From: Candidatus Saccharimonadota bacterium
GTDB lineage: Bacteria; Patescibacteriota; Gracilibacteria; BD1-5; UBA6164
Assembly (NCBI GenBank): GCA_963677765.1
Contig: OY782392.1
Span: forward strand, 600,001-632,000
DNA: 32,000 nucleotides
Direction of reading: 5' to 3'
Numbering within the stretch: position 1 is the first letter of the stretch; each line of letters starts with the position of its first letter. The translations under genes were made by a program, and so were the position numbers. A model generated the notes under the pieces. It had not been told where the DNA came from, made no database searches, and saw only the letters and a list, made by a program, of their open reading frames with translations. This document shows positions 1-32,000 of this stretch, one piece after another.

Positions 1-2136
1 TTAAGATATGATTACTCATATAGGTTTTATGATGACTTTCATAATAATACTAACAGTACTATATACTTTAACAACTATAGTGTTGATTTTATAAACTGAT
101 CTTTCTTAGATTCAGGTTGATCTTTTTGATGGACAAATAATATTGCAAATAATTGATATCAATTATGATCAAGATCAAGTACTAGGGTATTAGAAACATC
201 TGCACCAAAATGGAGAATTGATTCAAAACCTTCTTCAAGAACTAATTGAACAAGAAATAGTTATGATTTCGGTATAGAATATACTATTGCATATGACTAT
301 TCTAATAATTATCCAGATTCAAGTGATGATTATTCTCATAAGGAATGTGTTTATTATAGTGTAACTTGGTGTTGAGATGGTGTATTAGATAGCTCTTATG
401 AAACTTGTGATTATAATGATCCAAATCAATTATGATGGTGAACAGGAGGTTGTAATACTAGTTGTGAACCTATAAATGATACAACTTCAAGTTCAAGTTC
501 GTCTAGTTCTTCTAGTTCGTCATCATCTAGTTCGAGTAGTTCATCTTCAAGTTCTAGTTCATCTAGTTCATCATCATCTAGTTCAAGTTCGTCTAGTTCT
601 TCTAGTTCGTCATCATCTAGTTCGAGTAGTTCATCTTCAAGTTCTAGTTCATCTAGTTCATCATCAAGTTCAAGTAGTTCTTCTAGTTCTTCAGGTTGAT
701 CAAGCTCTTCAGGTTGAAGTAGTAGCTCATGATGATCAAGCTCTTCAGGATGATCTAGTAGCTCATGATGATGAACTCCAGATACATTTTGTTGAGATTG
801 ATCAGTTCAAAGACCTAGTAATAATCCTTATTCTTGTGTTACATGATATGATTCTACATGAAATCCTATTAATTGAGAATGTTATGAATATATTTTAGAA
901 GAATGTGATTATTGATCTTGAACATGGCCTTCTTGGTGTTGAGCTCCATGAACTTCGAGTCAATGTAAAATTACATGAGAATTATCTTTTCCATGAACTG
1001 GTGAATTAATATTTTGACCAGAGGATAATGTTACAATTTGAGATTGAATGAACCCATATTTTACTTATTCTCTTAGTAAACCTTATATTAGAAATAATTC
1101 GTCTTTTGATTACCATTTTGATGAATTATGTGTAGTTAAAAAATCATGAAATACTTTGGATTGAAGTACTACATGTCAATCTATGCCAGATATATTATGA
1201 GCATGACAAACTTATTATTTTACTAATTATCCTATATTAGTTTGAAATACAAGTAGTTTAACAGCATGAACTTATGATGATAATTTGGTAGTTACAACAT
1301 TGAAAAATGATGGTAGATTATATGATGATGCTTTCTTTGCAGCTGAATTATGAGTTAGAGTTTCTAAACCTAGTATAGCTACAACATGATGAGGTACTAG
1401 TTTTCTTAGTTCTACTGATTGAATATCTAATGTAAGTGTTGTTACAAATAATAAATCTAATAGTGATGAAAATAAAAACTTTGTATGATTAGGAGTTTCT
1501 ACATGAGATATTTCTAGTTATTCAGATGAACTTAATGATTCATCTTCTATAGATTTAGTTAAACAAGAATGAGATGACTATAGTATAAAATCAAACTCTA
1601 ATTCTGAGTCTACATGAATTACATTAGCAACTTCTAATAGCTTATCAGATTTTGAAAGTTATAATTGAATAAGTAATGCTTTTGTTTTGAGGGATACAGA
1701 CTTTATAATTAATTCTTCAACTCTATATTGAGAAACTTGAGTAAGAACATATATAATAGAGTGAGGTAATTTGTTTATAAATTGAAATATATTATATCCA
1801 AGTAATATTGCTTTTGTTGTAAAAGGTTGAAATATTATTATAAATAAAGATGTTTCAAGAATAGAATGAACTTATATTACTATAGCTAATTGAAGTGAAG
1901 GTTGAGATATAAAATCAGACTGAATAAAAACAACTAATACTTTAAATGTATTTTGATCATTGTATTGAAATACAAATGATTTAGTAAATAATAGAACTTA
2001 TATCAAATATAATTCATGATGACAACTAGATGTTTGAACTATAGTTAGTTTTGGTTCTTCTGTTTTTAGACAGCCAGCACCATTGACATCTACTTTTATA
2101 TCTGAATATATGGATAGTATAAAAATTTCTAATTAA
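1..2136 (+). CDS. Secreted/surface protein (5' end outside window): two Myxococcus-type cysteine-rich repeats, a 69-Ser + (GGSSSS)4 linker, and a beta-rich C-terminal region
   Basis: Frame 1 has no TAA/TAG from base 1 to TAA 2134-2136 (checked codon by codon) and contains dozens of in-frame TGA. CGDGVLDSSYETCDYNDPNQLGWGTGGCNTSCE (370-471) and FCGDGSVQ...LEECDYG...WCG...QC (790-966) fit the CGDG..(E/T)CD..GC..C repeat pattern (TIGR02232/DUF4215-like). Function is inferred only. Confidence 0.75.
487..774 (+). repeat. Poly-serine coding tract: 69 consecutive Ser codons (487-693) followed by (GGSSSS)x4 GGG. It contains a perfect 2 x 90-bp tandem duplication (about 491-580 and 581-666).
   Basis: Direct reading of frame 1. 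Mixed AGT/TCA/TCT/TCG codons. The 90-bp period is also visible in the off-frame ORF-track peptide (30-aa unit repeated). Confidence 0.9.
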
Positions 2137-2168
2137 AAAAAAGAATAGCAATTGCTATTCTTTTTTTA
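2135..2168. terminator. Bidirectional rho-independent terminator between convergent genes
   Basis: Perfect palindrome GAATAGCAATTGCTATTC (2143-2160) flanked by an A-run upstream and a T-run downstream. Confidence 0.6.
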
Positions 2169-3203
2169 GTATATTTTGGGTATAAACTTATATTTAACTC
2201 TTTTTTTGTATTCAATATAATCTGGATCCATTCATAAATGTTTTTCCTCTGTCATAGCCCTTAGGTAATATATTGTGAACCAAAGCGATAATGAAATAAT
2301 TATAAGTATTAATGTTTTTATATTTAAATTATTTATATTAAATATTATTATAGGAAGAGCTCAAATTAACCGAGAAATATTTTTTGAAGCATAAGCAGGA
2401 TGTCTTACATATTTATATGGTCATCTTGTTATTATTCATCTATTTGTAAGATTACTTGCTTTTAATCATAGTGATATTGAAGCCCGAGAATATATTCAAA
2501 AAGATATCAATAATATTGTATTTAAAGCAATATGAATATTTATATTTTCAAATGTAGGAAAATCACTGCTATACCATCATAATATTTTTTCTAAACTTAT
2601 ATTAAAAGGAGGGTAACATATTATTGTTACTATCCATCATAATAAAGTAGGTTCAACACTTTTTATTTTATTTCAAAGATATTTGCTTTCCAGCATATAT
2701 CATAAAGTAAAGAATAACAAGTCTATTATAAATATAAATGTTAATATTCATGCAAATAGATATGTATTAAAGTAGAATAAAAAATTACTTCATATCAAAT
2801 CTATTTCATTATATCACCAATATATTTTGTTTATTACATATCAAATATTTCAACTTAGCCATAGTATCATCATTGGTAAGAAAAATAATTTAACTATCCA
2901 TGCAAGTATAGAATTTTTTTCTTCCTTATTTATTTTAGTTTTTTTATTTTTGAATTTTTTTATAAAGAAATTAATTGCTACTCTAGCTTTAGAATTCTCT
3001 TTTTCAAATATATAAAATGGTATTAATAGTACTGCATATAAAATAATTATTATATGAAATATATCTAAACTATTAATATTAAAATCAAGGAAATTTAGAT
3101 CTTTTATGAAAAAATCTTTATAGTAATTATTATTAGTATAGAATAGATATCATATAATAATAAATAACATAGTAGATGAATAGTTTTTTATTAAGTCTTT
3201 CAT
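2166..3203 (-). CDS. Isoprenylcysteine carboxyl methyltransferase (ICMT)/phospholipid methyltransferase-family polytopic membrane protein
   Basis: 345-aa table-25 ORF, checked for absence of TAA/TAG. An in-frame TAA lies just upstream of the ATG at 3203. Multiple hydrophobic segments. C-terminal motif NLTNRGIITRGPYKYVRHPAYASK...YYLRAMTEEKHLGMDPDYIEYKKRV matches the L.T.G.Y..VRHP.Y / R...EE..L signature of this family. Confidence 0.7.
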
Positions 3204-3322
3204 TTTTTTTTATTATCTTTTTATTTGAATAAATATTAAGTAAAAATATTCAAAAGTAAATATTAATTGCATTTTAGAGTTTTTTTATTAAATTACTCTT
3301 TATTATTATTTAATTATTATAA

Positions 3323-3913
3323 ATGAAGAAAGGACATATATTTTTTATTTCATGAGTTGCTTGAGCATGAAAATGAACTGCAATAAAATGACTTTTAAAT
3401 GAAAATATACCTAATTTAGAGCTTGCATTATCTTGTAAAACCAGAGAGCCTAGGAAATGAGAGATTTTATGAGTAGATTATAATAAATTATCAGTTGAAG
3501 ATTTTAAAAAATCTATTGATAATTGAGAATTCTTAGAATATAATTTTATTCATAATCAGGCTTATTATTGAACAAGAATGGAAGATGTTATTGATAATTG
3601 AATAAATAAAGGGAAGATAATAATTAAAGAAATGGATATACTTATTTTACCTAAAGTATTAGAAGAGAGATTTAACTTAAGAGATCACTTTACTTATATA
3701 TTTATTGATTTACCGATTGAGTCAATTAGAGAAAGAATGATGCATAGGTGAGATGATGTTACATGATTAGATTATGAAAATAGAATTAATTCTGCATTGA
3801 AAGAAAAAAAACTTAAGCACTTAGCTGATTATATTATTGATTGAAGTTGAAGACCTGAAGATACTTTAAATCAATTAAAAGATATTATATTTAATAAAAT
3901 AAATAAACTTTAA
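3323..3913 (+). CDS. gmk: Guanylate kinase
   Basis: MKKGHIFFISGVAGAGKGT... P-loop with all four Gly encoded by TGA. CKTREPRKGEILGVDYNKLS and FLEYNFIHNQAYYGT motifs. 196 aa. Confidence 0.9.
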
Positions 3914-4569
3914 TGAAAATACATATTGTTACTATATTTCCTGAAAGTTTTGATTCATATTTTTCTAGTTCAATATTAAAAAAATCAATTGAAAATAAAT
4001 TCTTAGAAGTATTTTTTTATAAATTAAATGATTTTTCTGACCTTCCTACTAAGAGAGTTGATTCAAAAGCTTATTGAATGCACTGACAAGTATTATCTCC
4101 AATATATTTATCAAATGCTGTTGATTATATTTTTTCTAGGTTATGAAAAAAAATACCAGTAATATATTTAACTCCATCATGAGATCTTTTAAATCAAGAA
4201 TATTTAGAAAAATTTTATGAAAATAAAGGTTCTAAAGAATTTATTTTGATTTGTTGACATTATGAATGAGTAGATCAAAGATTTATAGATTTATATGTTG
4301 ATTATGAAATAAGTATATGAGAATATGTTTTAACAAGTTGAGAATTATCATCTATGGTTTTTATAGATTCTTTGATTAGGAATATTCCTGGTGTTTTATG
4401 AAATTCTTTATCTTTGGAAGAAGATAGTTTTTCCAAAAAATTAGATAGACAAAAGGAGTATCCTGTGTATACTCGTCCAGAGGTTTTTAAAGGCTTGCAT
4501 GTTCCAAGTGTTTTAATTTCATGAGATCATAAAAAAATTAATGATTGGAAAAATAATAACTTAAGATAA
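3913..4569 (+). CDS. trmD: tRNA (guanine37-N1)-methyltransferase
   Basis: The ATG overlaps the gmk stop (TAATG). [43 protein letters not shown], EEDSF and YPVYTRPEVF motifs. 218 aa. Confidence 0.9.
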
Positions 4570-4580
4570 CTAAAACTTTT

Positions 4581-8116: not shown

Positions 8117-10501
8117 ATGCCAGATAAAAATATAGTAGATGATTATTATTCAAATATAAATTCTTCAGATTGAAATCAATCAGAAGAGGGTAACTCTCAA
8201 AAAAAAGTAAAAATTGTTACTAAGAAAAAAGTAGTAGTTAAAAAACCTGTTCCAAAAAAGGAATCAGGTAATTTAAATGATTCAAAAAAATCAAATAAAA
8301 ATTCACAATGAACTGATTCTAATCAAAGTCAAAATAAAAAGAAAAAGATAGTTCAAAAGATAGAGGTTATAAAAAAACCAGAAAAGAGAAATATAACTGT
8401 AGTGAAAAAAGAAGATCAAGAACCTAAAGTAAAAACTAGAAGATCTGCTCAAAAAAATCAAAATGAACAAAATAAGGATTCAATAGTTCCTGGTGTTAAT
8501 CTTAATAAAGATAATGTTAAAACTTTTTGAAAAAATAAACCTAAAGTTACAAAAACTGATTCTCAAGATTCTGAGAAAAAAGCTGGTAAACCAAAATTTG
8601 TTAACAGAAAAACAAGAGGTAAGGTTAATTTTGCAAGAGATGAAGATTTAGTTTTTACTAGATCTAATAAAATTCAAAAAACAAAGAAAAAAGAAAAGGA
8701 TGTTGAAAATATACAACAAAATTTGGTTGAAAAAAAATGAGAAACTATAATTGTGCCAGAAGTTTTATCTTTAAAAGAGTTGTCTGAAAAGTTTTGAGTT
8801 GTTTTACCAAAATTGATTGCTGAATTTATGAAAAATTGATTAATGGTTAATATAAATTCAAAAATTGATTATGAAACAGCAGCAATTATCTGAGAAGCTT
8901 TTGATATAACTGTTGAAAAAGAAAGTTGAAATTGAGCATCTGTTGAAGATATTTTAATCTGAGATATTTCAAATTTTTTACTAGAAGATGATTCTTCAAA
9001 ACTTTTACCTAGATCACCTGTTGTATCTATTATGGGGCATGTAGATCATGGTAAAACTTCATTGCTTGATTATATTAGAAAAGCTAAAGTAGCATCTTGA
9101 GAAGCATGATGAATAACTCAAAGTATATGAGCTTATCAAGTAGAGTTAGATCAATGAAATATTACTTTTTTAGATACTCCATGACATGAAGCTTTTACTG
9201 TTATGAGAGCTAGATGAGCTAAGTCTACGGATATTGCTATATTAGTTGTTGCTTCTGATGAATGAGTAAAACCACAAACTATAGAATCTATTAATCATGC
9301 TAAAGAAGCTGATATACCTGTTATAGTTGCTATAAATAAAATGGATAAAGTTTGAGCTAATCCTGATCATGTAAAATGACAATTAGCAGAAAATTGATTA
9401 ATGCCAGAAGATTGGGGTGGAGATATTCCAATGATTCCAGTTTCTGCTCATACTTGATTTTGAATAGATGAATTATTAGAAATGATATTATTGGTTTCAG
9501 AAATGAAGGAATTAAAAGCTAATCCAAATAGAAATGGTGTTGCTACAGTTGTTGAATCTCATTTAGATTCTAATTTATGACCAGTAGCCACTGTTTTAGT
9601 TAATACTTGAACTATCAATTCATGAGACAATATAGTATGTCAAGATTCATATTGAAAAGTTAAAATCTTAAGAAATTATAATAATCAAAAAGTTAAGTTT
9701 GCTAAACCTTGAGATCCTGTTTTGATAGTTGGTTTAGATAAGGTTGTAGATGGTTGAGATATTTTACAAGTTGTTAATAATTCAGATATAGCTAAGGTAA
9801 AAGCACTTCAATATAAAGAATTACTTGAAAAACAAAAGAAAGAGTCAGCTTCATGATTAGATCTTCTTATGTCTAAAATTAAGGCTTGAAACTTAAAACA
9901 ACTTAAAATAATACTTAAAGCTGATACTAATGGTTCATTAGAGGCAATGAAAGCATCTTTAATTAAATTGTCTACTGAAGAAACTAGTGTTTCAATTATA
10001 CATTCATGAGTAGGTTCTATTACAGAATGAGATATTCTTATGTGACAATGAAGTGAAGCTATACTTGTTTGATTTAATGTTGGTGTTTTACCTACAGCAA
10101 AAACAACACTAGAGTCATCATGAGTTGAATTTATTTCTAGTGATATTATTTATCATATAACTGAAAGAATAGAAAAAATTATAACTTGAATGCTTGATCC
10201 AAAAGAAGTAGAAGTTATTTTATGAAGAGTTAAAGTTGGTTGAATATTCTTTACTGAAAAGAAATTTATGATTTTATGATTGATTGTTGGTCCAGATGCT
10301 AAGATAGAAAATAAAACTAAAGTTAGAATATTAAGAAAGAAAAAATTTGTAGGTTCTTGAGAAATAGATTCTCTTAAACAATGAACTTTGGAGGTTAAAG
10401 AAGTTGAATGACCAATAGAATGTTGAATAAAATTGATAACTTCATTTAAGGTTGAAGAATGAGATGAATTAGAAGTTTATAAAATTGAAATTCAAAAATA
10501 A
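8117..10501 (+). CDS. infB: Translation initiation factor IF-2
   Basis: 794 aa. K/N-rich N-terminus. G-domain motifs [20 protein letters not shown] (Gly = TGA 9182-9184) and NKMDK. C-terminal domains colinear with IF-2. Confidence 0.95.
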
Positions 10502-11025: not shown

Positions 11026-11034
11026 GTATAGAAT
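11007..11034 (+). promoter_or_regulatory. Candidate promoter of infA-rpmJ-rpsM...
   Basis: TTGCAA (11007-11012), 16 nt, TAGAAT (11029-11034). It overlaps the 3' arm of the upstream hairpin. Confidence 0.35.
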
Positions 11035-11068
11035 GCTGTCACATTTTTGTATTTTTATTGACTTTTTT

Positions 11069-11299
11069 ATGTCAAACAAACAAGATAAAATCGAGGTAGA
11101 GGGTATTATAATTAAGGCTCTACCTGGTCTGGTATTTGATATTCAATTACCAGAAGAGTTTTGATGAGGAATTATCCAATGATACCTTAGTTGAAAAATG
11201 AGAAATAACTTTATTAAACTAATCGAGTGAGATAAAGTATTAGTAGAGTTGTCGCCTTATGATTTAACTAAATGAAGGATAGTCTTTAGACAAAAATAG
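11069..11299 (+). CDS. infA: Translation initiation factor IF-1
   Basis: 76 aa. IEVEGIIIKALPG..F.., [28 protein letters not shown]. The conserved Gly residues are TGA. TAG stop. Confidence 0.9.
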
Positions 11300-11353: not shown

Positions 11354-11470
11354 ATGAAAGTAAGAGCATCTGCAAAACCAATTTGCGACAAATGTAAAGT
11401 CGTAAAAAGAAAAGGAATTGTTAGAGTTATTTGTAGTGTTGATCCAAAACACAAACAAAGACAAGGATAA
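11354..11470 (+). CDS. rpmJ: 50S ribosomal protein L36
   Basis: [38 protein letters not shown], 38 aa. Confidence 0.9.
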
Positions 11471-11524: not shown

Positions 11525-11893
11525 ATGGCAAGAATTGCTTGAATAAATTTACCTAAGGGTAAACATGTTGAAATTGCACTAACTTATATTTATGGTATAG
11601 GTAGAACTGCTGCAAATGAAATCTTAACTAAAGTTGGGATTGATAAAACAACAAAAATAGAAACTATTTCTGAAGAAGATTTAGATAAAATCAGAGAAGA
11701 AATAAAAGCTAGTTATGTTGTTGAAGGTGATCTTAGAAGATTAATTGCTGGTAATATAAAAAGATTACAAGAAATTAATTGTTACAGAGGTCAAAGACAT
11801 AGAAAAAGACTTCCAGTTAGAGGTCAAAACACTAAAACTAATGCTAGAACTAGAAAAGGTAAGGCTACAGCTATTGCTGGTAAAAAGAAATAA
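11525..11893 (+). CDS. rpsM: 30S ribosomal protein S13
   Basis: [28 protein letters not shown]...[27 protein letters not shown]. Confidence 0.95.
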
Positions 11894-11935
11894 TATTTCT
11901 AATTTAGTATAACATTTAAAAACTTATTTTATATT

Positions 11936-12328
11936 ATGGCTAAAACTATTGCAAAAAAAAGTAAAAAAACTAGACAAATAATACCACATGGTCAAGCTCA
12001 TATTAACGCTACATTTAATAATACTATAGTTAGTATTACTGATGAAAAAGGTAATGTGTTAACTTGGTCTTCAGGTTGAGCTGCTGGTTTTAAAGGTGCT
12101 AGAGAATCTACTCCTTATGCTGCTCAAGTAGTAGCAGAAGAAGCTGCTTCAAAAGCTAAAACTCTTCATTCATTAGAAACTGTAGAAGTTTTTGTAAAAT
12201 GAATAGGTATTGGTAGAGAACAAGCTATTAGAGGTTTAATATCTGCAGGAATTGATTTAACTGCTATTTATGATATTACTCCAGTTCCACACAATGGATG
12301 TAGAAAGAAAAAAGTAAGAAAATTATAA
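11936..12328 (+). CDS. rpsK: 30S ribosomal protein S11
   Basis: ...[45 protein letters not shown]...[15 protein letters not shown]. Confidence 0.95.
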
Positions 12329-12382
12329 TTTTTATAAACTTACTAAAACAATTTTTTTAAATTTTAAATTTTAAATTTAATT

Positions 12383-13006
12383 ATGAGGTATACTTGACCA
12401 AAGAAAAAACTTTGTAGAAGAGAAGGTGTAAATCTATTTGGTACTGAAAAATACGATTTAACTGACTCAAAAAGAGCTCCTCTTAGAAGTAGAAAAACTA
12501 GTGAGTTTGGTACACAACTAAGAAAAAAACAATTAGCAAAAAGAATGTTTGGTTTATCTGAAAAACAATTTCTTTCTTATTTTAAAAAAGCTCAAAAATC
12601 TACTGCTGAAGGTACAACTTGAGAAAAAATGTTACAATTATTAGAATTAAGAATTGATAACGTTGTTTACAGAGCTAACTTTGCTAGAACAAGAATTCAA
12701 TCTAGACAATTTGTTAGTCATGCACATTTTACTTTAAACGGAGTTAAAATTGATGTTCCATCAATCTCAGTAAAAGTATGAGACGTGATTGCATTAAGAG
12801 ATAAATTAAAAGAATCTCCATTATATAAATCATTATTAGAAGAATTAGAAGAATTTTCTAAAGCTAATAAATGAAAAGTATCTGCTTGTAAATGGATAGA
12901 TGTTGATTCTAAAAAATTAACTATAACAATAAAAGCATTACCTACTAAAGAAGATTTCGAACAAATAATTGATATCCAAAAAATAGTAGAATTTTACTCA
13001 AAATAA
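12383..13006 (+). CDS. rpsD: 30S ribosomal protein S4
   Basis: MRYTGPKKKLCRREGVNLFG...LELRIDNVVYRANFARTRIQSRQFVSHAHFTLNG (S4 domain). Confidence 0.95.
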
Positions 13007-13043
13007 TAGTTAATTTATGTTATTTTTGTAATCAATTTAAAAT

Positions 13044-14024
13044 ATGCACATCATTCACAATACAATAGGGGTTCCTAAAATTATTCAAAAAGATTTAGAA
13101 AATAATACTTCATCTTTTACAGTATGACCTCTACCAAAGGGTTATGGTGTAACATTAGGGAATTCATTAAGAAGAATACTTTTGTCTTCTATTCCATGAA
13201 CAAAAGTGACTTGAATAAAAGTTAAATGAGTTAGTCATGAATACTCTACTCTTCCATGAGTTAAAGATTCTGTTTTAGATATAATTCTTAATATAAAAGG
13301 ATTAGTATTATCAAAATCAGAAGTATGAGTTGAATGGTTAAAACTACATAAAACTAAATCTTGAAAAGTTGTTGCTTGAGATATTGAAACTGTTGCATGA
13401 GTAGAAATACTTAATAAAGATCATTATATAACAGAAATTGATCAAGACGGTTTAGAATTAGATATAGAAATAAGAGTTGAAAAAGGAGTTTGATATATGA
13501 CTCAAGAAGATTTAAAAGAAAGAGAAGATGATGTTGAAGTTTTATTAGTAGATACTAATTTTTCTCCAGTATTAAATGTAAAATATAGTATAGAGAAAGC
13601 TAGATTTGGTGAAATAATCGATTTAGATTCTTTAGAAATATCTATTACTACTGATGGTTCAATTAGTTCTTCTGATGCATTAAAATTTTCATGAAATATG
13701 TTAAATTCTTATTTTTCAATATTTAATGAAGAATCTCTACAAGTAGAATGACAATTTATATCTGATGTTAAGGATTTAATATCTAGAGAAAAAGAAGAAG
13801 TTCAAGAAGAGTTAGAAAAGGAAACTTACACTCCTATTGAAATTATGTGATTATCTCCAAGAACATTAAATGCTTTAATAAACTGAGATATACTTTCAAT
13901 CGAAAAATTAACAAAATGTACAGAAACAAAACTTTCTTCTATCAAATGATTTGGTAAGAAAGCAATGACAGAAATTAGAGAAGCTCTTGCAGAAAGAGGT
14001 CTTAAATTATTAGGTGATGACTAA
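13044..14024 (+). CDS. rpoA: DNA-directed RNA polymerase alpha subunit
   Basis: 326 aa. GYGVTLGNSLRRILLSSIPG, SPV.NV.Y, and C-terminal LSPRTLNALINGDILSIEKL...GFGKKAMTEIREAL (alpha-CTD). Confidence 0.95.
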
Positions 14025-14053
14025 TATATCTAATTATTAATAATTAAAAAACA

Positions 14054-14416
14054 ATGAGACATAGAGTTAGAAAAAATTTAAAGTTCAACAATAAAAGTTT
14101 TTCTCATAGAGATGCTATGCAAAGAAACTTATTGACATCTTTTTTCTTGCACAAATCTATTAAAACTACTGATAAAAAAGTTAAATTAATAGTTCCAATG
14201 ATTGATAAATTAATCAACGTTGCAAATACTAAAGATGAAATGAACGCAATAAGATATGCTATGAAATATCTATATACAAAAGAAGCATCATTAGAATTAT
14301 TTAAAAATGTTGCTCCTAAATACAAAGGAAACAAGACATCTGGTTTTACTAGAGCTACTGCTATCAAATTTAGAGATGGTGATAATGCTAAAATAGTTAA
14401 ATTAGAATTAGTTTAA
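14054..14416 (+). CDS. rplQ: 50S ribosomal protein L17
   Basis: MRHRVRKNLKFNNKSFSHRDAMQRNL... One of the few genes with no TGA codon, so it is intact in the ORF track. Confidence 0.95.
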   Translation: MRHRVRKNLKFNNKSFSHRDAMQRNLLTSFFLHKSIKTTDKKVKLIVPMIDKLINVANTKDEMNAIRYAMKYLYTKEASLELFKNVAPKYKGNKTSGFTRATAIKFRDGDNAKIVKLELV

Positions 14417-14438
14417 TATTTACTTAAGTTAATTAGAC

Positions 14439-14867
14439 ATGAAAACAATTACTCCAACACAATTAAAAGGTGATCAAAGAAACTGGTATGTAATTGATGC
14501 TAAAGGTGAAACTTTAGGTAGATTAGCAACTAAAATTGCTGTTATCCTAAAAGGTAAAAACAAAGCATCTTTTGCTCCTCACTTAGATAATGGAGATTAC
14601 GTTATAGTAACTAACTGTGATAAATTTAAAGTAACTTGAAAAAAGTTAACTGATAAAATGTATTACAGACATACTGGTTACTTAGGTGGTCTTAAAGAAA
14701 TTTCTTTAGAAGATTTATTGGCTAAAAAACCAGTTAAAGCATTAGAATTTGCTGTTTCTGGAATGTTACCAAAAAATAAATTAAGAGCATGAATGTTATC
14801 TAGATTAAAATTATTTACTTGAGATGAACATACTTTTGTTGCTCAAAAACCTGAACTTATAAAATAA
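14439..14867 (+). CDS. rplM: 50S ribosomal protein L13
   Basis: ...[40 protein letters not shown]...[13 protein letters not shown]. Confidence 0.95.
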
Positions 14868-14879
14868 TAACAATTATTT

Positions 14880-15272: not shown

Positions 15273-15289
15273 TTCTTTTTATCTCGTCA

Positions 15290-15340
15290 TTATCTGTTTC
15301 AAACAGGTAATACTTATTATTATCCATTTGAAATGGATAA
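15290..15340 (+). promoter_or_regulatory. Two tandem, related 21-nt palindromes/hairpins in the rpsI-rpsL spacer
   Basis: TTATCTGTTTCAAACAGGTAA (15290-15310) and TTATCCATTTGAAATGGATAA (15320-15340). Shared TTATC...TTT.AAA...(G/A)TAA architecture, centres 30 bp apart, no trailing T-run. Confidence 0.35.
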
Positions 15341-16662: not shown

Positions 16663-16696
16663 AAAAAAAGACAAGAATTTATTTCTTGTCTTTTTT
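16663..16696. terminator. Bidirectional rho-independent terminator (rpmA / convergent nucleotidyltransferase gene)
   Basis: A7, GACAAGAA, 5-nt loop, TTCTTGTC, T6. The minus-strand gene's stop codon (16695-16697) sits in the T-run. Confidence 0.75.
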
Positions 16697-17873
16697 ATTT
16701 AATAATTTCTCATGGATTGGTATAAGAATCATTTTGAATTATTCTTCAAGGCATAGAATATGATTTTATTCAAGTTTTTACATTATCTCAAATAATTACT
16801 CATAGTTTATATAATCATGAATCAACTAAATTTCATTTTACCATTACTTTTATGTTAGACTTATCATGTCTTAGGTTTGCACTTATAAATCATCATCATA
16901 TATTAACATTGTTTCATATAATAGAATCTCATATATAACTTAGGTGAGCTATATTTGTATTATCTCATATACTAGAATTTTTCACTTCTACTGCATTTCA
17001 TATTTTACAGGCATCTCATATAACAGTTTCTCATCTTATATATGTATTAGGTCATATAATTGAATTTTTTCATACATATAAATTTCATTCTATGTATGTT
17101 CATGATTTTATTATTGCTCATTCTTCTAATATAATATTTCATTTTATCATTACACCTTCTTCTATAATTCATTTTATTTTATCTTTTTTTATGTTTGATA
17201 GGAAATATTTATTAGCACTTAATATATCCCAAGGGTATCAAACATCAATAAATTCTTTTTTTATTGTTATTGCTTTTAAAGGATGATATTTTACATATTG
17301 ATTTATTGCATCAGTTATTTCATATTCTCATCTGCTAGATTTTTCAATATTGTTTGCTAAATCAATTATTTTAGAATTAAATTTATAAACTCATAAGTTA
17401 GCAAGATTTCAAACATATTCACTAGGTTTTTCTATAATTTCTCTAACATTATTGTCAGAATCTACTTTGAATATTCAGTATTTTTCTGGATTTGTTACCT
17501 CTTTTACTAATACTCAATATCAATTAAATTCTATTATTTTTTCTAAATCTTTTTTATGAAATATAGAGTCTCAATTTAATAATAATATATCAAAATCTTT
17601 TTCTAATCATTTTATAGCAGCTCATGTTCATTTTTCTTCTCATTGAGTTATATAGTTAATTTTTATTCACTTATAACTATCTCATATTTCTTTTATTATT
17701 TCCTCTTTTTTATATTTAACAATAATTGTTATTTCAACAACATGTTTATATATATTTTCAATATTGTGTTTTAAAATAGATTTTCAAAATATTTTTATTA
17801 AAGGCTTAGGTTTAGTATTTGTAAATGGTCTAAGTCTACTTCATTCTCATGCTGCAAGAATAACTGCTTTCAT
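16695..17873 (-). CDS. Sugar-phosphate nucleotidyltransferase with a C-terminal left-handed beta-helix (GlmU-like/archaeal-type bifunctional)
   Basis: 392-aa table-25 ORF (checked). [28 protein letters not shown] (NTP-transferase G-loop), then hexapeptide repeats (IGPNTYIRGETVIGDACKIGNAVEVKNSSIGDNTNIAHLSYIGDSIIGNNVNIG). Confidence 0.8.
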
Positions 17874-18028: not shown

Positions 18029-20566
<2,538 letters not shown>

Positions 20567-20570: not shown

Positions 20571-20596
20571 AAAAAAACACCTTAAGGTGTTTTTTT
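20571..20596. terminator. Bidirectional terminator between gyrA and the convergent 1125-aa ORF
   Basis: AAAAAAACACC-TTAA-GGTGTTTTTTT. The minus-strand ORF's stop codon (20595-20597) overlaps the T-run. Confidence 0.7.
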
Positions 20597-23500
20597 ATTT
20601 TATAGAGTTTTCAAATTCAGTATTTAATAGTTCCATTACACTTCATCTAGGATAATATTTTTCAATAAACATATTTTCTAGATAAGTTTCTCAGTATATA
20701 AAATCTCTCTCTTGTTCTCAAGATACTTGAGTTTTATTTATATCTAAAACTTCTCATTTAAAGTTTTTTATATTTAGTACTGTAGGTATTTCATCAATTC
20801 AAAGAGATTTTAAGATTTTATTTATAAATATCTTTGTTTCATTTTCATTTAAATAATCTCAATCAACATTGAATCAAATTCATTCTACATTTGATATACT
20901 ATTAAATATTTGATCTTTTATTTTCCATAGTTTAGATAATCAAATATCATTTAATAAATTATAAAAATCAACTATATTATCAATTGCTTCAGGATTAGAT
21001 TCAACTATTTGTTTTTCTATAATATTAAGTTCAATTTTATTACCATTATTTTCAATTACTCATGTTTCAGGGTTATATCATTTAGTTTCAATAGTTTGAT
21101 TATATATTTCAGTATTATTATAGTTATTATTTGTTGAGTTATCTAATTTTTCTTTTTCCTCAATTATTCTTACTTCTTCTTCTATATTAATTCATTTTTC
21201 TATTACTAAATAGTCCCTAAAACTAATATCACTTCTGTTAGAAGAATAATAATCAATAATTAAATCTGTTTTTTCATTTGCATACTTTGTTTCTGTTTGC
21301 AAAGTATAAGTTTCAAATAATTTTAATATATTTTCTTTTTCTTCAGGAACTAGATTATAGAAGTATTTATCTAAAATTTGATTTTTTATTTCTGTTATTT
21401 CTTCATGACTTTTTCATTGTATAAGCTGATTAAATATTTTATTTAATTCCTCAGAGTTAATATATTCTTTAATTTCTCAATTTTCGTTTTCTTTTTTAAT
21501 AATAAGTAGTTCTCTATATTCCTCTTTTATTATGGAAGAAAGGTCACTTTTAGATATGTCTTCTTTCAGTTCTTCTTCTTGTTGCTCTAATTTTTCGTTA
21601 AATGATTCAGTTACTATTTTCAATATTTCTCCTATTTTTTGTTTTTTTTCTTCATTGTCTAGTCATTCATATTTTAACTCAGTAGTTATCGTTAAATATA
21701 TCGTATTCATTTTCTCACTATTTATTTCTCAATCTGATAATACATTATCAATAGTTTCATTTAGAGTATCAGAATCACTTTTATCTAAATTACTTGATGA
21801 TAAAAGTTCTTTTAATTTATCCTTATAATCTAATACTTTATTTTTGTCTATATCTTTATTATTTTTATATTCATCTGCTTTATCTCTTATTTGATTATGC
21901 TCATTTTTATAGTAAATTGCATATTGGTTTTCTGATACAAAATTTATAAGTTCATCATATGTATCTTTATATTCATCTTCTATATTTCAATTTATTCATT
22001 TTTCTATATTTCATATTATTAAAGCTATAGCTTTATCATTAAATAGTTTTTCTTTTACATTTAAAGGCATTTCTTTTATTCATCATTCCCATATAGAGTT
22101 TTCATTACTAAACTTTATAACTTGTAGAAATCTATTTATATCATCAGTATTTATAACTGAAAAATAAGCTTGTATATTTTTCATGTAAGTTTCTTTATCA
22201 AAAACACTTTTTTGATTATTTCCATCTACAGAATTTTTTTGTCATAGACTTTTTAGAAAAGTATCAATTATATCCTTATCTCATCTCATTTCTTTTGGTA
22301 GTATATAAAAGAAACCAAAATTATATTCTATTAATGTCTTGTTTAATTTTATATTATTTGTTGGGGTTGTTATAAATGCTGCTCATTCTCATAAGTATCA
22401 TAATCATATAAATTTTGTCATATAATATTGTGCATAACTATTGTCTATATTTTGTATTATATAACTTGTTATAGTTTTTAAATCTTCCTGATCTATAGTT
22501 TTTATTACTTCATGTTCTCATATTCATGATAAATAGTTATACTTTGATAATATAGATTTAAAATTATTTTTATCTATTTGTAAATATTCTCAAATATAAT
22601 TTTTTACATATTCAGAATGTACTGTTATATTAAAATCTTTTATTACTCTTGCTAATTCATTACTATCTACTCATAAATATACTGACCTTGTTAACAACTC
22701 ATTTAGCATTCATTCTCCACTATTTTTTCTATATTTTCTTATTATTACTCATAAGTTATCTTCTAGTATATTTTTTGGTATTTCTTGTAATCACCAGTAT
22801 CACAAATCAATATTTTCATGCCTTATTATATTTAGATTTCATTTTAAAACAGGATTTATATCTTTTATTTCCAAAGTTTTACTTTTTTCTTCAAATATTT
22901 TTAATACAGATAATAATTTTTCTTCATTATTAATTAATATTATTAAATCTTGGTTTTTATATAAATATTCAGCATCTTTTTTATTTATTTCTTCTATATA
23001 TTCTTGATTTTTTGCTCTTAAATTTGATATAGGCTCGATTTGTGAGTGTATTTTTTCTAATTCTTCTCATACTCAAGAGTTATTTAATATTTCTTTAGCA
23101 ATAGAATTAGTATTAGATGACCATATTTTATATAAATCATCAATTTTTTTTATACTCATTTTTTGCCTAAGAGTATCAATATTAAGAGTGTTTTTATTCT
23201 CTAAATATAAAAAATAATTTGCTAAAGCTCTTGAGTTTACAACATTAGGATTATTATTATCTCAAATTATTTCTGTATTTGGTCTTGATAAAAATTCTTC
23301 AAAATCACTAATTTTCATAAGGTAATTTGAACTTTCATTGCTATATCATTTTATAAATAAATCATTGAATCATTGTTCTCATCATATTATGTGATTTATA
23401 TATCTATCTTGTAGAGTATTATGTATATTATTTATATCAGCTAATACGTTTGTTTCTTTTTTAACATAAGATAATAAAAGGTATGTCCAACTATTTTTTT

Positions 23501-23972
23501 CTCATCATTTTTCTAATCTTTGAGCTTCTTCTTTTATATATTTTTGTAAAAAGCTATTATTTACTTTATTTCAATCTAAATTAAATTCTTCAATTATTGA
23601 TTCTTTTGAATTATTTTCATTAAAATAATTTAATGCTATTAAATCAGCTCTATAACCTAAATCTACTCACTCTTTAGGGATTTCATCTATAAAATTTTTA
23701 GATTTTACTTCTTTTACAGTCTTCAATAATTCTTCTATAAATTTTGTTTGAGATTCTATTTCATCAATTTTTCCCATAACTTCTTCCATAATTTCTGACT
23801 CTATATTCTGAATAGTTTTAGAATCTCAATCTAAATCTGCAAAACTATAATCCATAAATCATAACTCTTCATCATTTTTTATTAATGATAAAAGTTTTTC
23901 TACTTCTTCAATTTTTATTTCTTTTAATTGTTCTGTTGATATATTTTCTAATATATTTTGATTTTCAGTCAT
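20595..23972 (-). CDS. Giant hypothetical cytoplasmic protein (1125 aa), no recognisable domain
   Basis: I read the reverse frame codon by codon from ATG (23972) to TAA (20597-20595). It has no TAA/TAG and 49 in-frame TGA (hand count). No signal peptide, TM segment or Walker A motif seen. K/E/N/I/D-rich, apparently helical. Confidence 0.8.
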
Positions 23973-24457: not shown

Positions 24458-26278
24458 ATGAAAATACTTAGTAGTGAAATAAGAGAGAAATATTTAGAAT
24501 TTTTTAAAAGCAAAAATCACTCTATAATACCAAGTGCTCCTGTTGTTCCTGAGAATGATCCAACTGTTTTATTTAATACTGCTTGAATGCAACCTTTGGT
24601 TCCATATTTATTATGAGAAAAACATCCAAGTGGTACTAGATTAGCTGATAGTCAAAAATGTATTAGAACATGAGATATAGAAGAAGTATGAGATAATACT
24701 CATCTTACTTTTTTTGAAATGCTTTGAAACTGGTCACTTTGAGATTATTTTAAAGAAGAATCAATTTCTTATTCTTGGGAATTTTTAACTAGTAAAGATT
24801 GGTTATGACTTGATCCTAGAATGATAGCTGTAACTGTTTTTGAGTGAGATGAAGATGCTCCTAGAGATGAAGAATCAGCTAATATTTGGGCTAATATAGG
24901 TATGCCAAGAGATAGAATTTCATATTTACCAAAATCAGAAAACTGGTGGGCTGCTGGTGATACTGGACCATGTTGACCAGATAGTGAAATTTTTTACTGG
25001 GTTTGAGAATCAGACTTTCCACCAGAAGGTTCTAATGTAGAAAATGATGAAGATAATTGGATGGAAATATGGAATAATGTATTTATGGAATACAATAGAC
25101 TTCCAAATTGAGAGCTTGTTAAATTACCAGCTCAAAATGTTGATACATGAATGTGATTAGAAAGAATTACAGCAACTCTTAATGGTGAAAAAACAGTATA
25201 TAATACAGATATTTTTAAAGAAATAATTGAATCAATTTCAAAAGAAATTTGAGTTGATTACAATGAAAATACAATGAAATCAATAAGAATAATAGCCGAT
25301 CATGTAAGAACTTCTACTGTTATGATTAGTGATTGAGTTATTCCAAGTAATGTTGATCAATGATATGTATTAAGAAGACTTATAAGAATATCTATAAGAC
25401 AAGCTTATAAATTATGATATAAATGAGAATTTTTATATAATGTTTCTAAAGTTGTATCTGATAAGTTATGATTAGCTTATCCTCATATGATTGATAAAAA
25501 AGATGAAATAGTAGAAGAAATATTAAGAGAAGAAAAACAATTTTGAGATACTTTAGAAAAATGATTAAAAGAGTTTGATAAGTTAATTAATGGTTTTGCT
25601 ATTGCTTTTGAAAAAACTGGTAAAAAAATTGATACTATAGCATGACCTAAAGCATTTAAACTTTATGATACTTATGGTTTTCCATTGGAAATGACAAAAG
25701 AAATAGCTGAAGAAAAAGGTTATAAAGTAGATGAAGAATGATTTAATAAAGCTTATAAAGAGCATCAAGAAAAATCAAGAACTGCTAGTGCTTGAAAATT
25801 TAAATGATGATTAGCTGATAGTAGTGAGGAAACAACTGCTCTTCATAGTGCTACTCATTTGTTACTTGCTGGTTTAAGAAAATATTTATGAGATCATGTT
25901 CATCAAAAAGGTAGTAATATAACTCCTGAAAGATTGAGATTTGATTTTTCTCATGATGAAAAAGTTGAAAGAGATATTTTAGATAAGGTAGAAGAATTTG
26001 TAAATGAAGCTATAAATTCTAATCTAAATGTTACAATTCAAGAAATGTGAAAACAGGAGGCAAAAGATTCTTGAGTAGAATGAAGTTTTTGGGAAAAATA
26101 TCCTGATATTGTAAAGGTTTATTCTATGGTATGAGAAAATGGTACTGTCTATTCTAAAGAGTTATGTGGTTGACCTCATGTTGAAAATTCTAAAAATATG
26201 TGAGTATTTAAAATCAAAAAAGAAGAAGCTAGTAGTAGATGAGTAAGAAGAATTAAAGCAGTTTTAATAAAAGATTAA
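24458..26278 (+). CDS. alaS: Alanine--tRNA ligase, short form (606 aa) lacking the C-Ala/DHHA1 domain
   Basis: Frame checked throughout. [60 protein letters not shown] and VDTGMGLERI (class II core). Editing-site HSATHLL...H and CGGPHV zinc motifs. Ends ...[12 protein letters not shown], and the next gene starts 11 nt later. Confidence 0.9.
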
Positions 26279-26288: not shown

Positions 26289-27281
26289 ATGAAAAATAAA
26301 GAGAAAATAAATATTGTAACTATTTGATGATGAAATGGTAGTTATTGATTATTATCAAGTATAAGAGATAATGAAAACTATAATATATCAGCAATTATTT
26401 CTATGAGTGATAGTTGATGATCTACAGGTGTTCTAAGAGAAGAGTTCAATATATTACCTCCTTGAGATGTAAGAAGATGAATAATGGCTTTATCTCGTGA
26501 ACATGAAATAGTAAAAAAATTATTTGATTATAGGTATGATAAAGAATGTAGTGTATGAGGTCATAGTTTAGGTAATTTAATAATTACTGCTATGGCTGAT
26601 ATTACATGAGACTTTGATAAGTGATTAAAGCAAGTATCAAGAATGTTCAAGGTAAAAGGTAGAGTTATACCTGTTACATTAGAATTATCTCATTTAAATG
26701 TTAAACTAGAAGATTGAACTCTTGTAGAATGAGAAACAAATATTGATACAAAACTTGATGAGAAAAGTTCTCCAATAAAAAAAGCATTTTTAACTCCAGA
26801 TGTAGTTGCAAATAGTAAGGCTATAACATCAATAAATAAGGCAGATTTAATTATTATATCATTTTGAGACTTGTATACCTCTATTGTTCCAAACTTGCTA
26901 GTAAAGTGAATAAAAGAAGCTATATCTAGTAATAAAAAAGCCAAAGTAGTATATTTTTGTAATCTTATGACTAAGCCATGAGAAACTACAGATTTTGAAG
27001 CTATAGATTTTATTAATGTTATAGAAAAGTATTTATGAAAAGATATACTTGATTATGTAATTGTTAATAATTGATATATATCAGAAAAAATGGCTGAAAA
27101 ATATAAGTCATTAGAAAATAAAAAACCTGTAAAAATAAAAAATCAAAAATATTTTAGAGGTAAATCTTATAAAGTTATTGAAGCTGATTTATTACATGAA
27201 AACTCATTTGTTCGTCATAGTTATGATAAAATTGATAAAGTTATCAAAGATATTATAAAACAATTAAAAATAAAAAGTTAG
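26289..27281 (+). CDS. yvcK: YvcK/CofD-like gluconeogenesis-factor family protein (UPF0052)
   Basis: 330 aa. IVTIGGGNGSYGLL, AIISMSDSGGSTGVLREEFNILPPGDVRRGIMALS, GHSLGNLII and DLIIISFGDLYTSIVPNLLV motifs. Confidence 0.85.
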
Positions 27282-27425: not shown

Positions 27426-30400
27426 ATGAAAAAGATTTTTTTGTTAATACTATCATGTATAGTAATGTTTTTATTAGGGAATAATGTTAGTGCAAATGAT
27501 AATTATTATAGTGATTCATGTTGATATTATATAGAAAAGGAAGAAACTGATTATATAAATAATAATCCAACACAAGAGTTTTATATTTGAGATAATTATC
27601 AATCATCATATATAACAAATGATTATATATATTTATCATACATAGAATATAATCAAGAACCTTTACTAATGAATAATAATTCTAACTCAAATGGAGTATT
27701 AAAAAGAATTAATCATAAAAATGGTAATATAATAAAAAAAAATTTAAACTATATAAATGATTTTAATAATAATATATATAATATATTATTTATAGAAGAT
27801 TGATTTATATATTATCAAAATGAATGATCAATATATAGAATAAGTGAAGAATGTTGAGATATTAACTTAAAATGAAAAGAAATATATAAATTAGAGCTTT
27901 TGTTTTTTAATATATACAAAGAAAAATATCTTTTTTCAGATGGAAAATATATTTATTTTGAAGTAGAAAATAATATTTATAGATTTGATTATATAAATAT
28001 ATGAAATTTAGAACTAGTAGAAAATATCGATACTAGTATAGCTAATAATATACTATTCAACTCAGAGATATTATATTATTTAAATCATATTTACTATAAT
28101 AGTAATTGAAAACTATATAAACAATATATAAAAAATTGAACAATATTAGAACCAGAAGAAATATATAATGAGGAACTCAAGTTATTTAATATAAATGAGG
28201 ACTATATATTTTTTTTAGAACAAGATGCTGACATAGAATGATATATAACAAAATATATAAAAAATGATTGATTAGATAGAGAAAAAAAATTATTTTATGA
28301 ATGATATCTGGAATCTTGAATTATGCTAGAGACAGGATTTATATTTTATGAAGTTATTGATGAATGATTAAATGATGAAATTCATTATATATCTTTTGAT
28401 AAACCTCTAGAATCTACTAAAATATTAGATGAATATTATGATATTTATTATTCAGATAAGGAAAAAATATTGTATAATGAAAATTGATATGTAAAAACAA
28501 AATTATTAAATCAAAAAAATATCCCAATACCAACAAACTTAAGACAATATATTAAATCACCACTTCTAGAAAAAGAAGAGATAGAACTATGAAGCAGTAT
28601 AGGTAAGTTTCAATCTGGAAGTTGAATAATATTTGAAACAGAAATAGATAATCCAGAATCAAAAGAATTGAAAATAGAAATAGAAATATATGAAAAAATA
28701 TCTTGAAATACAAGAATTTTTAATAGTGAATTTTTAAATGTAACTTGAAAGAGATCATTTGTTATATGACTTGATGCATGAGATTATACTTGGAAGTTGA
28801 GACTAGAAGATACAGATTGAAATACTAGTGATTGGGTAGAATTCAAAGAAAATTGATTAGATACAGATTTTTCTATTTTTGAATGATTTGAACCTTATCC
28901 TTATGGGTTTAGTTTTGTAAATGCAAGTCCTGATCTATCAAAATTAACTTGATGAATAAGTTGAAAAGATTGATTTTTTAAAGATACAAGAGAAAAAAAT
29001 CCTTGAACAAAATGGGAAATAATGGATATGGTTTTTCCAATAGAATCATTTAATTGAGATGAAAGAAAATATTTTGCAGCATTTGAGTCATTGTGATTAA
29101 ATAATGATAATCCTACTATTTTTTCTGATGCTATATGTTTTTGACTTTGAATAAGTGCCTTAACTCAGTATCATAATCCAGAAATATTAGAAAGAAATTT
29201 TCCTGTTTTTAGTAATAATATATGAAATTGATATATTTTTGATAAAATAAATATAAAAAATGATACTAATAATAATTATCAATTAATATGATTAGATGAT
29301 AATTTAAAATCGATTTTAGCATTACAATTATATCAAAAAGAAACTAGTTTTTCTAATAAAAGAAATTATTCTTATACAAATGATACTCCAATAGATGTAT
29401 TAAATAAATTAAAAACTAATCCTTGAAAATATATACTTAGTTTTAGGTGAAAAACTTGATGTAATTTTTTATGAAAATTATGTAAAGATGTTTGACATAC
29501 AGTTATACCATACAAAGTAGAGTGAAACAAAATATATATTTGGGATAATATAACACCATATCCATTTTTTGAAGATAAGGAATGAATTAAAGAAGCATAT
29601 AACCAATATATAGAAATAGATATAATAAATAATAAATATTCAGTAATTTGATATAATCGGGATAAATTTGAAGAAATATGAATTGTATCTATAGATGAAG
29701 CTTTTACTGATAATACATCTGTTATATGATTTAATGATATAGATACTCTATACACTCTTAACTGAAATTCAGATATATTACTTACAGATATCAACTGAAA
29801 TAAAACATGATATAAAAACTGAGAAATATATGAAGAAATCCCTTGAACTAGAATAGTGGTAAACTATGCTTGAGAAACTATAGATAATACATTTAAACAA
29901 ATCTACCTACCACAAAAACTAGAAAACCTAACAATAGAAATAAATGCTAAAGTTGATGAAAGCTATGACCTAATGATAGCATGATGAGACTATTACACAA
30001 AAATAGAATGAATAACTACAGCATCATGACAAACTGATATTTTTAATATATCAAGAGAAAATATTAAAATAGATTTTGATGATAATAAAGCAGAAAATAA
30101 TTCATACAATATACTAGTAGATGACTTCAAAAATAATTGAACCTGAACAGTTATGCTGTGAAATCTAGAAACAATAAATTGAAAACAAGAATTAGATATA
30201 AACTGGATAGAAGTATTAAACAATAGCAATACTGCAGTAATATATTCAAAAGATTTAGACAATGATGGAATACAAGAAACAATAGAAAATCTTAAAGCAA
30301 TACTAGATTATAGTATAGAACCAGAACCAGAAATCTTATCATGAAATATAAGCTGAAAAATATGACTATATCTACCACAAGAAATATGCAAAAAGATATG

Positions 30401-30800: not shown

Positions 30801-30819
30801 TATATAATAATAAAAAATT

Positions 30820-31269
30820 ATGAAAGAAAAAATTAAAAATATAGTTAAGAATAGATATTTTAAAATAATAGTTTTTGTATTATTATGATTATTTATACTT
30901 AGAGAATCATATGCGGTTTATATAGATATGTATAACTTTAAACAATTAGAAAAAGCTAAACCATATTTAGAAACAATAGATAAAAATACAAAAAAATTTT
31001 ATAGTTTAAAAGAATTTAATGTAATATATAGTGCTTGAATTAAACCAATTAGAAATTGTTATGATGTTAGTAATTACAATTGAAATGAAAAATATATTTT
31101 TTGATTTAAATTAGAGTCATTAATATATATATATATATATAAAACAAAATATTATGCATATCCTAAATATGATGCTCCATATAGAAATTGGTGTGAAGTA
31201 TGATTAGGTTGTTATGATAAAAATAAAGAAATATTTGAAAGAGTTATATCAAATCCATGTGAAAATTAA
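30820..31269 (+). CDS. Small N-terminally membrane-anchored Cys-containing protein, paralog A (149 aa)
   Basis: MKEKIKNIVKNRYFKIIVFVLLGLFIL (anchor), four Cys in total, C-terminus ISNPCEN*. Contains an in-frame (TA)9 tract (31123-31140) encoding IYIYIY. Confidence 0.65.
31123..31140 (+). repeat. (AT)9 dinucleotide repeat inside paralog A
   Basis: Direct count, positions 31123-31140. Confidence 0.95.
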
Positions 31270-31278
31270 ATAAAAATT

Positions 31279-31765
31279 ATGAAAGAAAAAATGAAAAATA
31301 TAGTTAAGAATAGATATTTCAGAATAATAATTAAATTTTTTATATGATTTTTATTATTATTAATATTGAGTTTTATATTAGTTGCTATATATAGTTTTAC
31401 ATTTGAAAAAGATAAGATAGCAATAGATAGATATAATTTTGAACAGTTAGAAAAATCTAAACCTATACTAGAATCAATACCAGAAACTGATAAAAATTTT
31501 TATAGTTTAAAAGAGTTTAATCAAAAATATAGTGCTGATATACAACCAATTAAAAATTGTTATTATATAAGAAATTATAATTGAGATGAAAAGTATATAT
31601 TTTGATTTAAACTAGAGTCATTAATATATATATATATATAGAACAAATTTATTTGCATATCCTAAATATGATTTACCTTTTGTTCCAATGTATTATTCAG
31701 GTTGACCTTGAGATAGAAATAAATCTAAATTTAAGTATACAATTTCAAATCCATGTATAGATTAA
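31279..31765 (+). pseudogene. Paralog B of the small anchored protein, interrupted by a -2 frameshift in its (TA)8 tract (TAG at 31639-31641); the conserved C-terminus continues in the frame shifted by the missing TA unit to TAA 31763-31765
   Basis: The 5' part is colinear with paralog A (MKEKMKNIVKNRYFRIII..., YNFEQLEKSKP, FYSLKEFN, NCY, NYNGDEKYIFGFKLESLIYIYI). After the TA tract, the homologous AYPKYD...ISNPC(I/E) segment is out of frame by exactly one TA unit (34 vs 36 nt between TTA and GCA). Confidence 0.6.
31624..31640 (+). repeat. (AT)8+A dinucleotide repeat inside paralog B, one unit shorter than in A
   Basis: Direct count, positions 31624-31640. Confidence 0.95.
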
Positions 31766-32000
31766 TAATAAATAAATTAGAACAAAATAGATATATATCC
31801 AAATCAAACAATAATTGAATTAATTTGAGAATGAAACCCTACAGTACAAACAAGTAATTGAACAAGAAGTAAAGACTGAACAGTTAGGTATGGAAGAAAT
31901 ATAAAAGCTACTATACCTCCAATATGAGAAACAAGAATAATAGAATTTAAAATAAATTGAGAATCATGATTTTTTACTATTATAAGGGAATAGATTATAT

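Follow-up and report, generated by a model that had tools for sequence, protein, structure and literature searches.

The window analysed here is a stretch of 32,000 nucleotides from contig OY782392.1, and it comes from the chromosome of an uncultivated Candidatus Gracilibacteria bacterium of the BD1-5 type. Its gene content is of chromosomal type and includes gmk, trmD, tig, infB, infA, rpmJ, a run of genes from rpsM to rpmA, gyrA, alaS and a CofD/YvcK homologue (Table 1). The subject of this report is the genetic code in which these genes are written, and in particular the amino acids encoded by UGA and CGG.

The window has a G+C content of 23.8%. With TGA counted as a stop, the two strands offer at most 163 codons between one stop and the next, and just 19 frames attain 100 codons. 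If TGA is treated as a sense codon, the longest proteins have 1125 and 1124 residues (1131 and 1144 codons from stop to stop). With TAA and TAG as the only stops, 31 non-overlapping genes are called. Together with rpmJ, whose 38 residues fell below the 50-residue filter used in gene calling, this gives 32 genes, and about 94% of the window is coding. Of the called genes, 27 terminate in TAA and 4 in TAG; rpmJ likewise closes at one of these two stops. In-frame TGA occurs 490 times, about once in every 20 codons, and is carried by 30 of the 31 called genes. Translation table 11 would leave IF-2 in 47 fragments, GyrA in 43 and AlaRS in 35.

At the base composition of the window, TAA and TAG together have a probability of 0.075 per random codon, and an open run of 1125 codons would arise with p of about 7e-39. 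The open frames obtained with TGA as sense far exceed what is expected by chance, and termination is by UAA and UAG only. An earlier note on this DNA had called standard-code open reading frames invalid here and had described frames of up to 1125 codons that close at TAA or TAG alone; both statements agree with these counts. The TGA positions that it cited (3353, 3362, 3368, 3374, 9182 and 15699) are, all six, in-frame codons of gmk, infB and rpsL. The first four encode all four glycines of the guanylate kinase P-loop, G-V-A-G-A-G-K-G-T, and the codon at 15699-15701 supplies the glycine of the DLPGVRY motif of rpsL. TGA was also found, as the note had it, at the glycines of three IF-1 motifs (Table 1) and of the L27 N-terminus, MAHKKAQG.

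Table 1. Genes and individual codons of the window, with positions counted from its first nucleotide. Bit scores are for translations with TGA read as Gly or as Trp.
Feature	Position	Strand	Remarks
Whole window	1-32000		32 genes legible only with TGA as sense; 490 in-frame TGA
g01	1-2136	+	Large protein truncated by the window start; no Pfam match
g02, ICMT/DUF1295-like membrane methyltransferase	2166-3203	-	16 TGA; two of the three CGG codons of the window
CGG, g02 codon 278	2370-2372	-	Column is Trp (TGG) in 58/58 standard-code homologues
CGG, g02 codon 240	2484-2486	-	Column is Trp in 43/58 standard-code homologues
gmk (guanylate kinase)	3323-3913	+	Pfam Guanylate_kin 66.6 bits (Gly) vs 37.4 (Trp)
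trmD	3913-4569	+	9/10 aligned TGA on E. coli Gly; Pfam 129.5 bits (Gly) vs 99.7 (Trp)
infB (IF-2)	8117-10501	+	46 TGA; Gly of G3 motif DTPGH is TGA (9182-9184); Trp of PEDWGG is TGG
infA (IF-1)	11033-11299	+	Gly of SGKMR, GDKV and KGRI is TGA
rpmJ (L36, 38 residues)	11354-11470	+	Pfam 69 bits; no TGA
rpsM-rpsK-rpsD-rpoA-rplQ-rplM-rpsI-rpsL-rpsG-rpmA gene run	11525-16654	+	
rplQ (L17)	14054-14416	+	Zero TGA
g22, nucleotidyltransferase with hexapeptide repeats	16695-17873	-	40/41 Gly codons are TGA
gyrA	18029-20566	+	42 TGA; one frame over 797 columns against E. coli GyrA, through TGA codons
Hypothetical protein, 1125 residues, longest gene	20595-23972	-	49 TGA; no Pfam match
alaS	24458-26278	+	34 TGA, 10 TGG; 6 TGG on E. 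coli Trp
CofD/YvcK-family gene	26289-27281	+	18 TGA; 289.5 bits (Gly) vs 230.8 (Trp)
CGG, codon 745 of g28 (hypothetical, 1124 residues)	29658-29660	+	Variable column

The amino acid encoded by UGA can be approached through codon usage. In frame, TGA makes up 4.89% of codons, GGN 1.92% and TGG 0.51%. Together, TGA and GGN would give a glycine content of 6.8%, which is ordinary, and TGA would be the majority glycine codon, with 72% of all glycine codons in the window. If TGA encoded tryptophan, the same proteins would contain 5.4% tryptophan and 1.9% glycine.

A more direct answer is provided by alignment with proteins of known sequence. Seventeen proteins of the window (rplQ, rpoA, rpsD, rpsK, rpsM, rpsG, rpsL, infB, rpmA, gyrA, alaS, rpsI, rplM, gmk, trmD, infA and tig) were aligned with their E. 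coli K-12 orthologues, with each TGA masked as X, giving 4394 aligned columns. TGA lies opposite glycine at 111 of 181 positions, opposite alanine at 21 and opposite tryptophan at none; conversely, no E. coli tryptophan in these columns stands opposite TGA. The glycine background is 0.079, and the binomial probability of such an excess is 2e-74. For comparison, the conventional glycine codon GGT is opposite E. coli glycine at 86 of 112 positions, and TGG is opposite tryptophan at 11 of 19.

The same alignments were used to look for further reassignments (AGG, ATA, CTG and others). Among codons with more than two aligned positions, none deviates from its usual meaning except TCA, which is found narrowly more often opposite alanine (21) than opposite serine (19). 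This was taken as noise. Five very rare codons had two or fewer aligned positions, too few to judge.

A second reference set was built from g02, which encodes a membrane methyltransferase. A scan of GTDB species genomes yielded 58 standard-code homologues, which have no in-frame TGA, and 21 recoded relatives. The standard-code homologues range from Proteobacteria to metagenome-assembled genomes (MAGs) labelled as Saccharibacteria, and include Steroidobacter, Uliginosibacterium, Nitrosomonas and Nitrotoga. At g02 columns 168, 189, 256 and 261, where the window has TGA, glycine is found in 57 to 58 of the 58. At columns 190 and 308, where the window has TGG, all 58 have tryptophan.

The 21 recoded loci are mutually syntenic and effectively represent one genomic region. 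They share 14 to 18 genes with the window and can be compared with it codon by codon. Opposite a TGA of the window, they have TGA 1114 times, GGA 282 times, GGT 252 times and GGG 50 times. TGA makes up a varying share of the glycine codons in these relatives (loci L011-L044), from 0.08 at 37% G+C and 0.25 at 34% to 0.7-0.9 at 20-25%. UGA is the majority glycine codon in the AT-richest relatives, and its share climbs as G+C drops.

Domain scores point in the same direction. The earlier note had suggested that the alternative translations be compared with Pfam, and this was done in simplified form: the translation with glycine outscores that with tryptophan in all eight proteins tested. The C-terminal repeats of GyrA score 206.7 bits with glycine and 69.4 with tryptophan, the AlaRS core scores 502 and 421, and the Hexapep match of g22 (54.8 bits with glycine) is lost altogether with tryptophan. 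Other scores are listed in Table 1. These comparisons make it nearly certain that UGA encodes glycine, and UGG is, by the same alignments, retained as tryptophan. The earlier note had proposed glycine rather than tryptophan, and translation table 25 rather than table 4, and on both points the E. coli alignments, the g02 columns and the Pfam scores bear it out.

Table 25 probably does not describe the code completely. Among the codons that this table assigns to arginine, the window has 300 AGA, 24 AGG, 4 CGT and 3 CGG, and neither CGA nor CGC. Two of the three CGG codons fall at g02 columns 240 and 278 (Table 1). At these columns the recoded relatives have TGG or CGG, save for one TCA and a CGA of Absconditabacterales at column 240, and AGA never occurs at either of them. 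The closest relative (locus L011) has CGG at three tryptophan columns of the g02 enzyme. Reading CGG as tryptophan raises the ICMT Pfam score of g02 from 24.9 to 27.7 bits, and the DUF1295 match passes its threshold only with tryptophan.

The pattern extends to other genes. The relatives' 22 aligned CGG codons lie opposite CGG (14), TGG (7) or GCA (1) in the window and never opposite an arginine codon (AGA, AGG or CGT). Exchanges between CGG and TGG occur in four genes, g01, g02, g05 and g07. None of the relatives' 999 AGA codons stands opposite CGG. The neighbouring codon behaves differently: CGA in the Gracilibacteria relatives aligns to the arginine codons AGA, CGT and AGG, including the one for the invariant arginine of the TrmD motif YTRPE.

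The third CGG, in g28, is less telling. Six homologues were found, and in the relatives this variable column holds R, T or E. One relative, with 47% identity to g28, has its sole CGG at the very site of codon 745 in the window. This suggests a conserved special codon, one that does not swap freely with AGA, whichever residue it encodes.

CGG thus most likely encodes tryptophan rather than arginine, judging from the conserved columns and the codon exchanges. Reassignment in this lineage appears, from the alignments of CGA, to be limited to CGG, with CGA still read as arginine. The code would then combine UGA as glycine with CGG as tryptophan and CGA as arginine, splitting the CGR pair in a manner found in none of the NCBI tables, and on present comparisons this full assignment is probable. 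The identification of the code as table 25 in the earlier note therefore stands for UGA and probably fails for the three CGG codons. A tentative prediction of CGG as tryptophan in some Gracilibacteria had already been made with Codetta (PMC8629427).

Taken as a whole, the best explanation of the data is a Gracilibacteria chromosome in which UGA encodes glycine and, as an addition to table 25, CGG most likely encodes tryptophan; its probability is put at roughly 0.9. By analogy with published members of the clade, UGA would be read by a tRNA-Gly with the anticodon UCA. Release factor 2 would have been lost, leaving termination to RF1, and CGG would be read by a tRNA with the anticodon CCG and tryptophan identity. 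Under mutational pressure towards AT, these codons, being G+C-rich or stops, may first have become scarce and then open to capture.

Several observations weigh against this explanation. TGA is found on E. coli glycine less often than GGN is (61% against 77%). Within non-ribosomal genes the corresponding figures are 60% and 71% (p = 0.10), and the lower rate is largely an effect of gene class. The idea that glycines encoded by TGA are less conserved than those encoded by GGN was tested and dropped, the difference not being significant in non-ribosomal genes. ARAGORN found no tRNA genes in the window or in the 21 recoded relative loci. For the source organism the support comes from sequence comparison. 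For CGG, the evidence within the window consists of two codons in one gene, with the third in a variable column. In addition, TGG and CGG are separated by a single transition, and a genuine change from tryptophan to arginine would also produce CGG. Two further searches were negative: no Rfam family matches the window at the gathering threshold, and neither prfA nor prfB is among the genes of the 32-kb window.

The points concerning CGG are also those that favour plain NCBI table 25, in which UGA is glycine, CGG is arginine, and the CGG codons at tryptophan columns are true substitutions of arginine for tryptophan. The substitution is one transition away, and only three CGG codons are involved, one of them uninformative as to the residue. 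The plain tryptophan-to-arginine reading is nevertheless hard to accept, because the columns are invariant (column 278 is tryptophan in every standard-code homologue), because the swap recurs, because L011 has CGG at three such columns of its g02 homologue, and because CGG is absent from arginine columns. If CGG were arginine, synonymous exchanges with AGA should far outnumber so radical a replacement, yet there are none in 999 comparisons, and the relatives' CGG is never found on an arginine codon (0 of 22), whereas CGT and CGA do align there. Plain table 25 is accordingly considered unlikely.

A second alternative concerns the fidelity of UGA, which might be ambiguous, read mostly as glycine with a functional share of termination or of tryptophan. 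This would explain why UGA is avoided in genes that are highly expressed. In the ribosomal-protein genes of the rpsM-to-rpmA run, TGA accounts for 0-40% of glycine codons. The ratio of TGA to GGN is 18:71 in ribosomal-protein genes and 472:121 in other genes (odds ratio 0.065, p = 7e-28), and the 21 recoded relatives show the same avoidance (33:180 against 1498:921 elsewhere). Proteomics of a BD1-5 bacterium has also recovered rare peptides with residues other than glycine at UGA (PMC4032931). The avoidance could, however, equally be explained if the tRNA that reads UGA is scarce or inaccurate, or if codons turn over more slowly in conserved genes. TGA is also used for catalytically essential glycines, such as those of the guanylate kinase P-loop and the IF-2 G3 motif, and frequent misreading would be intolerable where it supplies 72% of glycine codons. 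Functional ambiguity is therefore very unlikely.

Translation table 4, in which UGA encodes tryptophan, is scarcely tenable. The window does resemble table 4 organisms in its low G+C content (24%), in the use of UGA as sense and in the retention of TGG, and a large public protein collection stores the proteins of this genome in table 4 translation. This reading is already refuted by the alignments, in which TGA avoids E. coli tryptophan completely and in the g02 columns coincides with near-invariant glycine. It would also impose the composition given above, and it lowers the Pfam score of every protein tested. The earlier note had argued that TGG as tryptophan excludes table 4. TGG is indeed tryptophan, as in the PEDWGG motif of IF-2 and at 11 of 19 aligned positions, but table 4 keeps this assignment, so that nothing follows from it. 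Table 4 is excluded because of the residues aligned to TGA.

The standard code, with genes broken by pseudogenization or by sequencing artefacts at TGA, has nothing in its favour except the fragmentation of every gene under table 11, and its likelihood is negligible: it is already refuted in that all 490 interruptions are one in-frame triplet, TGA, with TAA and TAG never in frame, that alignments cross TGA in a single frame (797 columns in GyrA), and that the 21 related genomes have kept either TGA or GGN at the TGA positions.

The lineage of the window can be determined from the protein sequences. L17 is the only larger gene without TGA, and its sequence is therefore identical under any code. 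All named members of the L17 protein cluster are MAGs called 'Candidatus Gracilibacteria bacterium'. The organism also occurs in the sequencing run SRR32022433, which contains an identical L17 gene. The best genomic loci, syntenic and with 74-57% amino acid identity, carry the same name. The earlier note had linked the code to Absconditabacteria and Gracilibacteria, and its placement of the window is right. Among GTDB species genomes, Ca. Gracilibacteria bacterium GSC-VFA-60_REP16 is the nearest, at 74% identity in g02. Its locus matches genes g01-g14 of the window, and the region appears to be syntenic between the two. On taxonomic grounds alone, an episymbiotic or predatory lifestyle may be expected.

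Several features of the genes lie outside the question of the code. The rpmJ gene sits in a 225-bp gap between infA and rpsM, where length filters easily overlook it. In the gene run, rplM-rpsI directly follows rplQ, and rpmA (L27) comes straight after rpsL-rpsG at 15381-16654, where fusA-tuf would be usual. AlaRS is short, with 606 residues compared to 876 in E. coli.

Repeats are found near both ends of the window. In g01, positions 490-772 encode a poly-serine tract of about 100 residues. The tract consists of 2.3 copies of a 90-bp unit, with 100% identity over two of them, and after it come (GGSSSS)n repeats with in-frame TGA. At the other end, g29 (30820-31269) and g30 (31279-31770) are tandem paralogues with 59% identity. 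g30 is frameshifted: a TAG comes just past a (TA)8 tract (31625-31640), and a C-terminus like that of g29 continues in the +1 frame. g29 is intact and has (TA)9 (31124-31141) at the corresponding position. The frameshift could reflect slipped-strand phase variation, a pseudogene or an assembly error.

The choice of code has practical consequences for annotation. Gene calls with table 11 are useless on this window, with no piece longer than 163 codons. A table 4 call places tryptophan at 490 glycine positions, lowers domain scores and can hide domains, as with Hexapep and with the GyrA repeats (from 207 to 69 bits). If CGG is indeed tryptophan, even a table 25 annotation probably mistranslates conserved tryptophans at rare CGG codons.

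Such effects can be seen in a large public protein collection. Entries P0016, P0019 and P0025, which correspond to S13, S12 and g02 of the window, carry tryptophan at every TGA, and versions translated with table 25 are absent. A W in such entries may be a true tryptophan from TGG or a glycine from TGA, which confuses homology alignments for the clade.

Both the code, with UGA as glycine, and its occurrence in this clade were already known, and CGG as tryptophan has likewise been predicted in print. The window adds one more low-G+C Gracilibacteria genome to those with the UGA reassignment. For CGG, one enzyme family and the comparison with 21 related genomes now support, at the level of codons, what had earlier only been suggested for the clade.

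Among the known codes closest to that of the window, table 25, the SR1/Gracilibacteria code, goes back to Campbell 2013 and Rinke 2013 (cited in PMC8629427). By the Codetta survey, Gracilibacteria and Absconditabacteria are the only bacteria known to read UGA as glycine (PMC8629427). Proteomics of a BD1-5 bacterium confirmed this reading, with 97 peptides unique to the glycine translation and 3 to the tryptophan translation (PMC4032931). The window shares with table 25 the reading of UGA as glycine, the use of UAA and UAG alone as stops, UGG as tryptophan, low G+C content and membership of the Gracilibacteria. It differs in that table 25 has CGG as arginine, whereas CGG of the window lies on tryptophan columns, and in having UGA as the majority glycine codon (72%).

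The code of Absconditabacteria has been predicted by Codetta to combine UGA as glycine with both CGA and CGG as tryptophan (PMC8629427). The window is similar in having CGG at conserved tryptophan positions, very rare CGN codons, and AGA as the dominant arginine codon. Unlike that code, the window has no CGA at all, and CGA of its Gracilibacteria relatives aligns to arginine codons. One of the recoded relatives belongs to the other clade: in locus L044, from the Absconditabacterales MAG JBDHUX010000016.1, four conserved tryptophan columns of the g02 homologue (3525-4553) are CGA, CGA, CGG and CGA. Among the recoded relatives, CGA is found on tryptophan columns only in this locus, and the four columns are an independent illustration, at the level of codons, of the CGA and CGG reassignment predicted for Absconditabacteria.

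Table 4, used by Mycoplasmatales, Entomoplasmatales and some insect endosymbionts, has low G+C content and UGA as sense in common with the window, as well as, presumably, the loss of RF2. The difference is the amino acid, which at UGA of the window is glycine and not tryptophan. Finally, CGG as tryptophan has been reported in Anaerococcus and in the Bacilli order RFN20 / Onthovivens (PMC8629427, PMC13092985). There, as in the window, CGG alone is changed while CGA stays arginine, the codon is extremely rare, and G+C content is low. Those bacteria belong to unrelated phyla in which UGA is a stop, whereas here the change is stacked on the reassignment of UGA to glycine.

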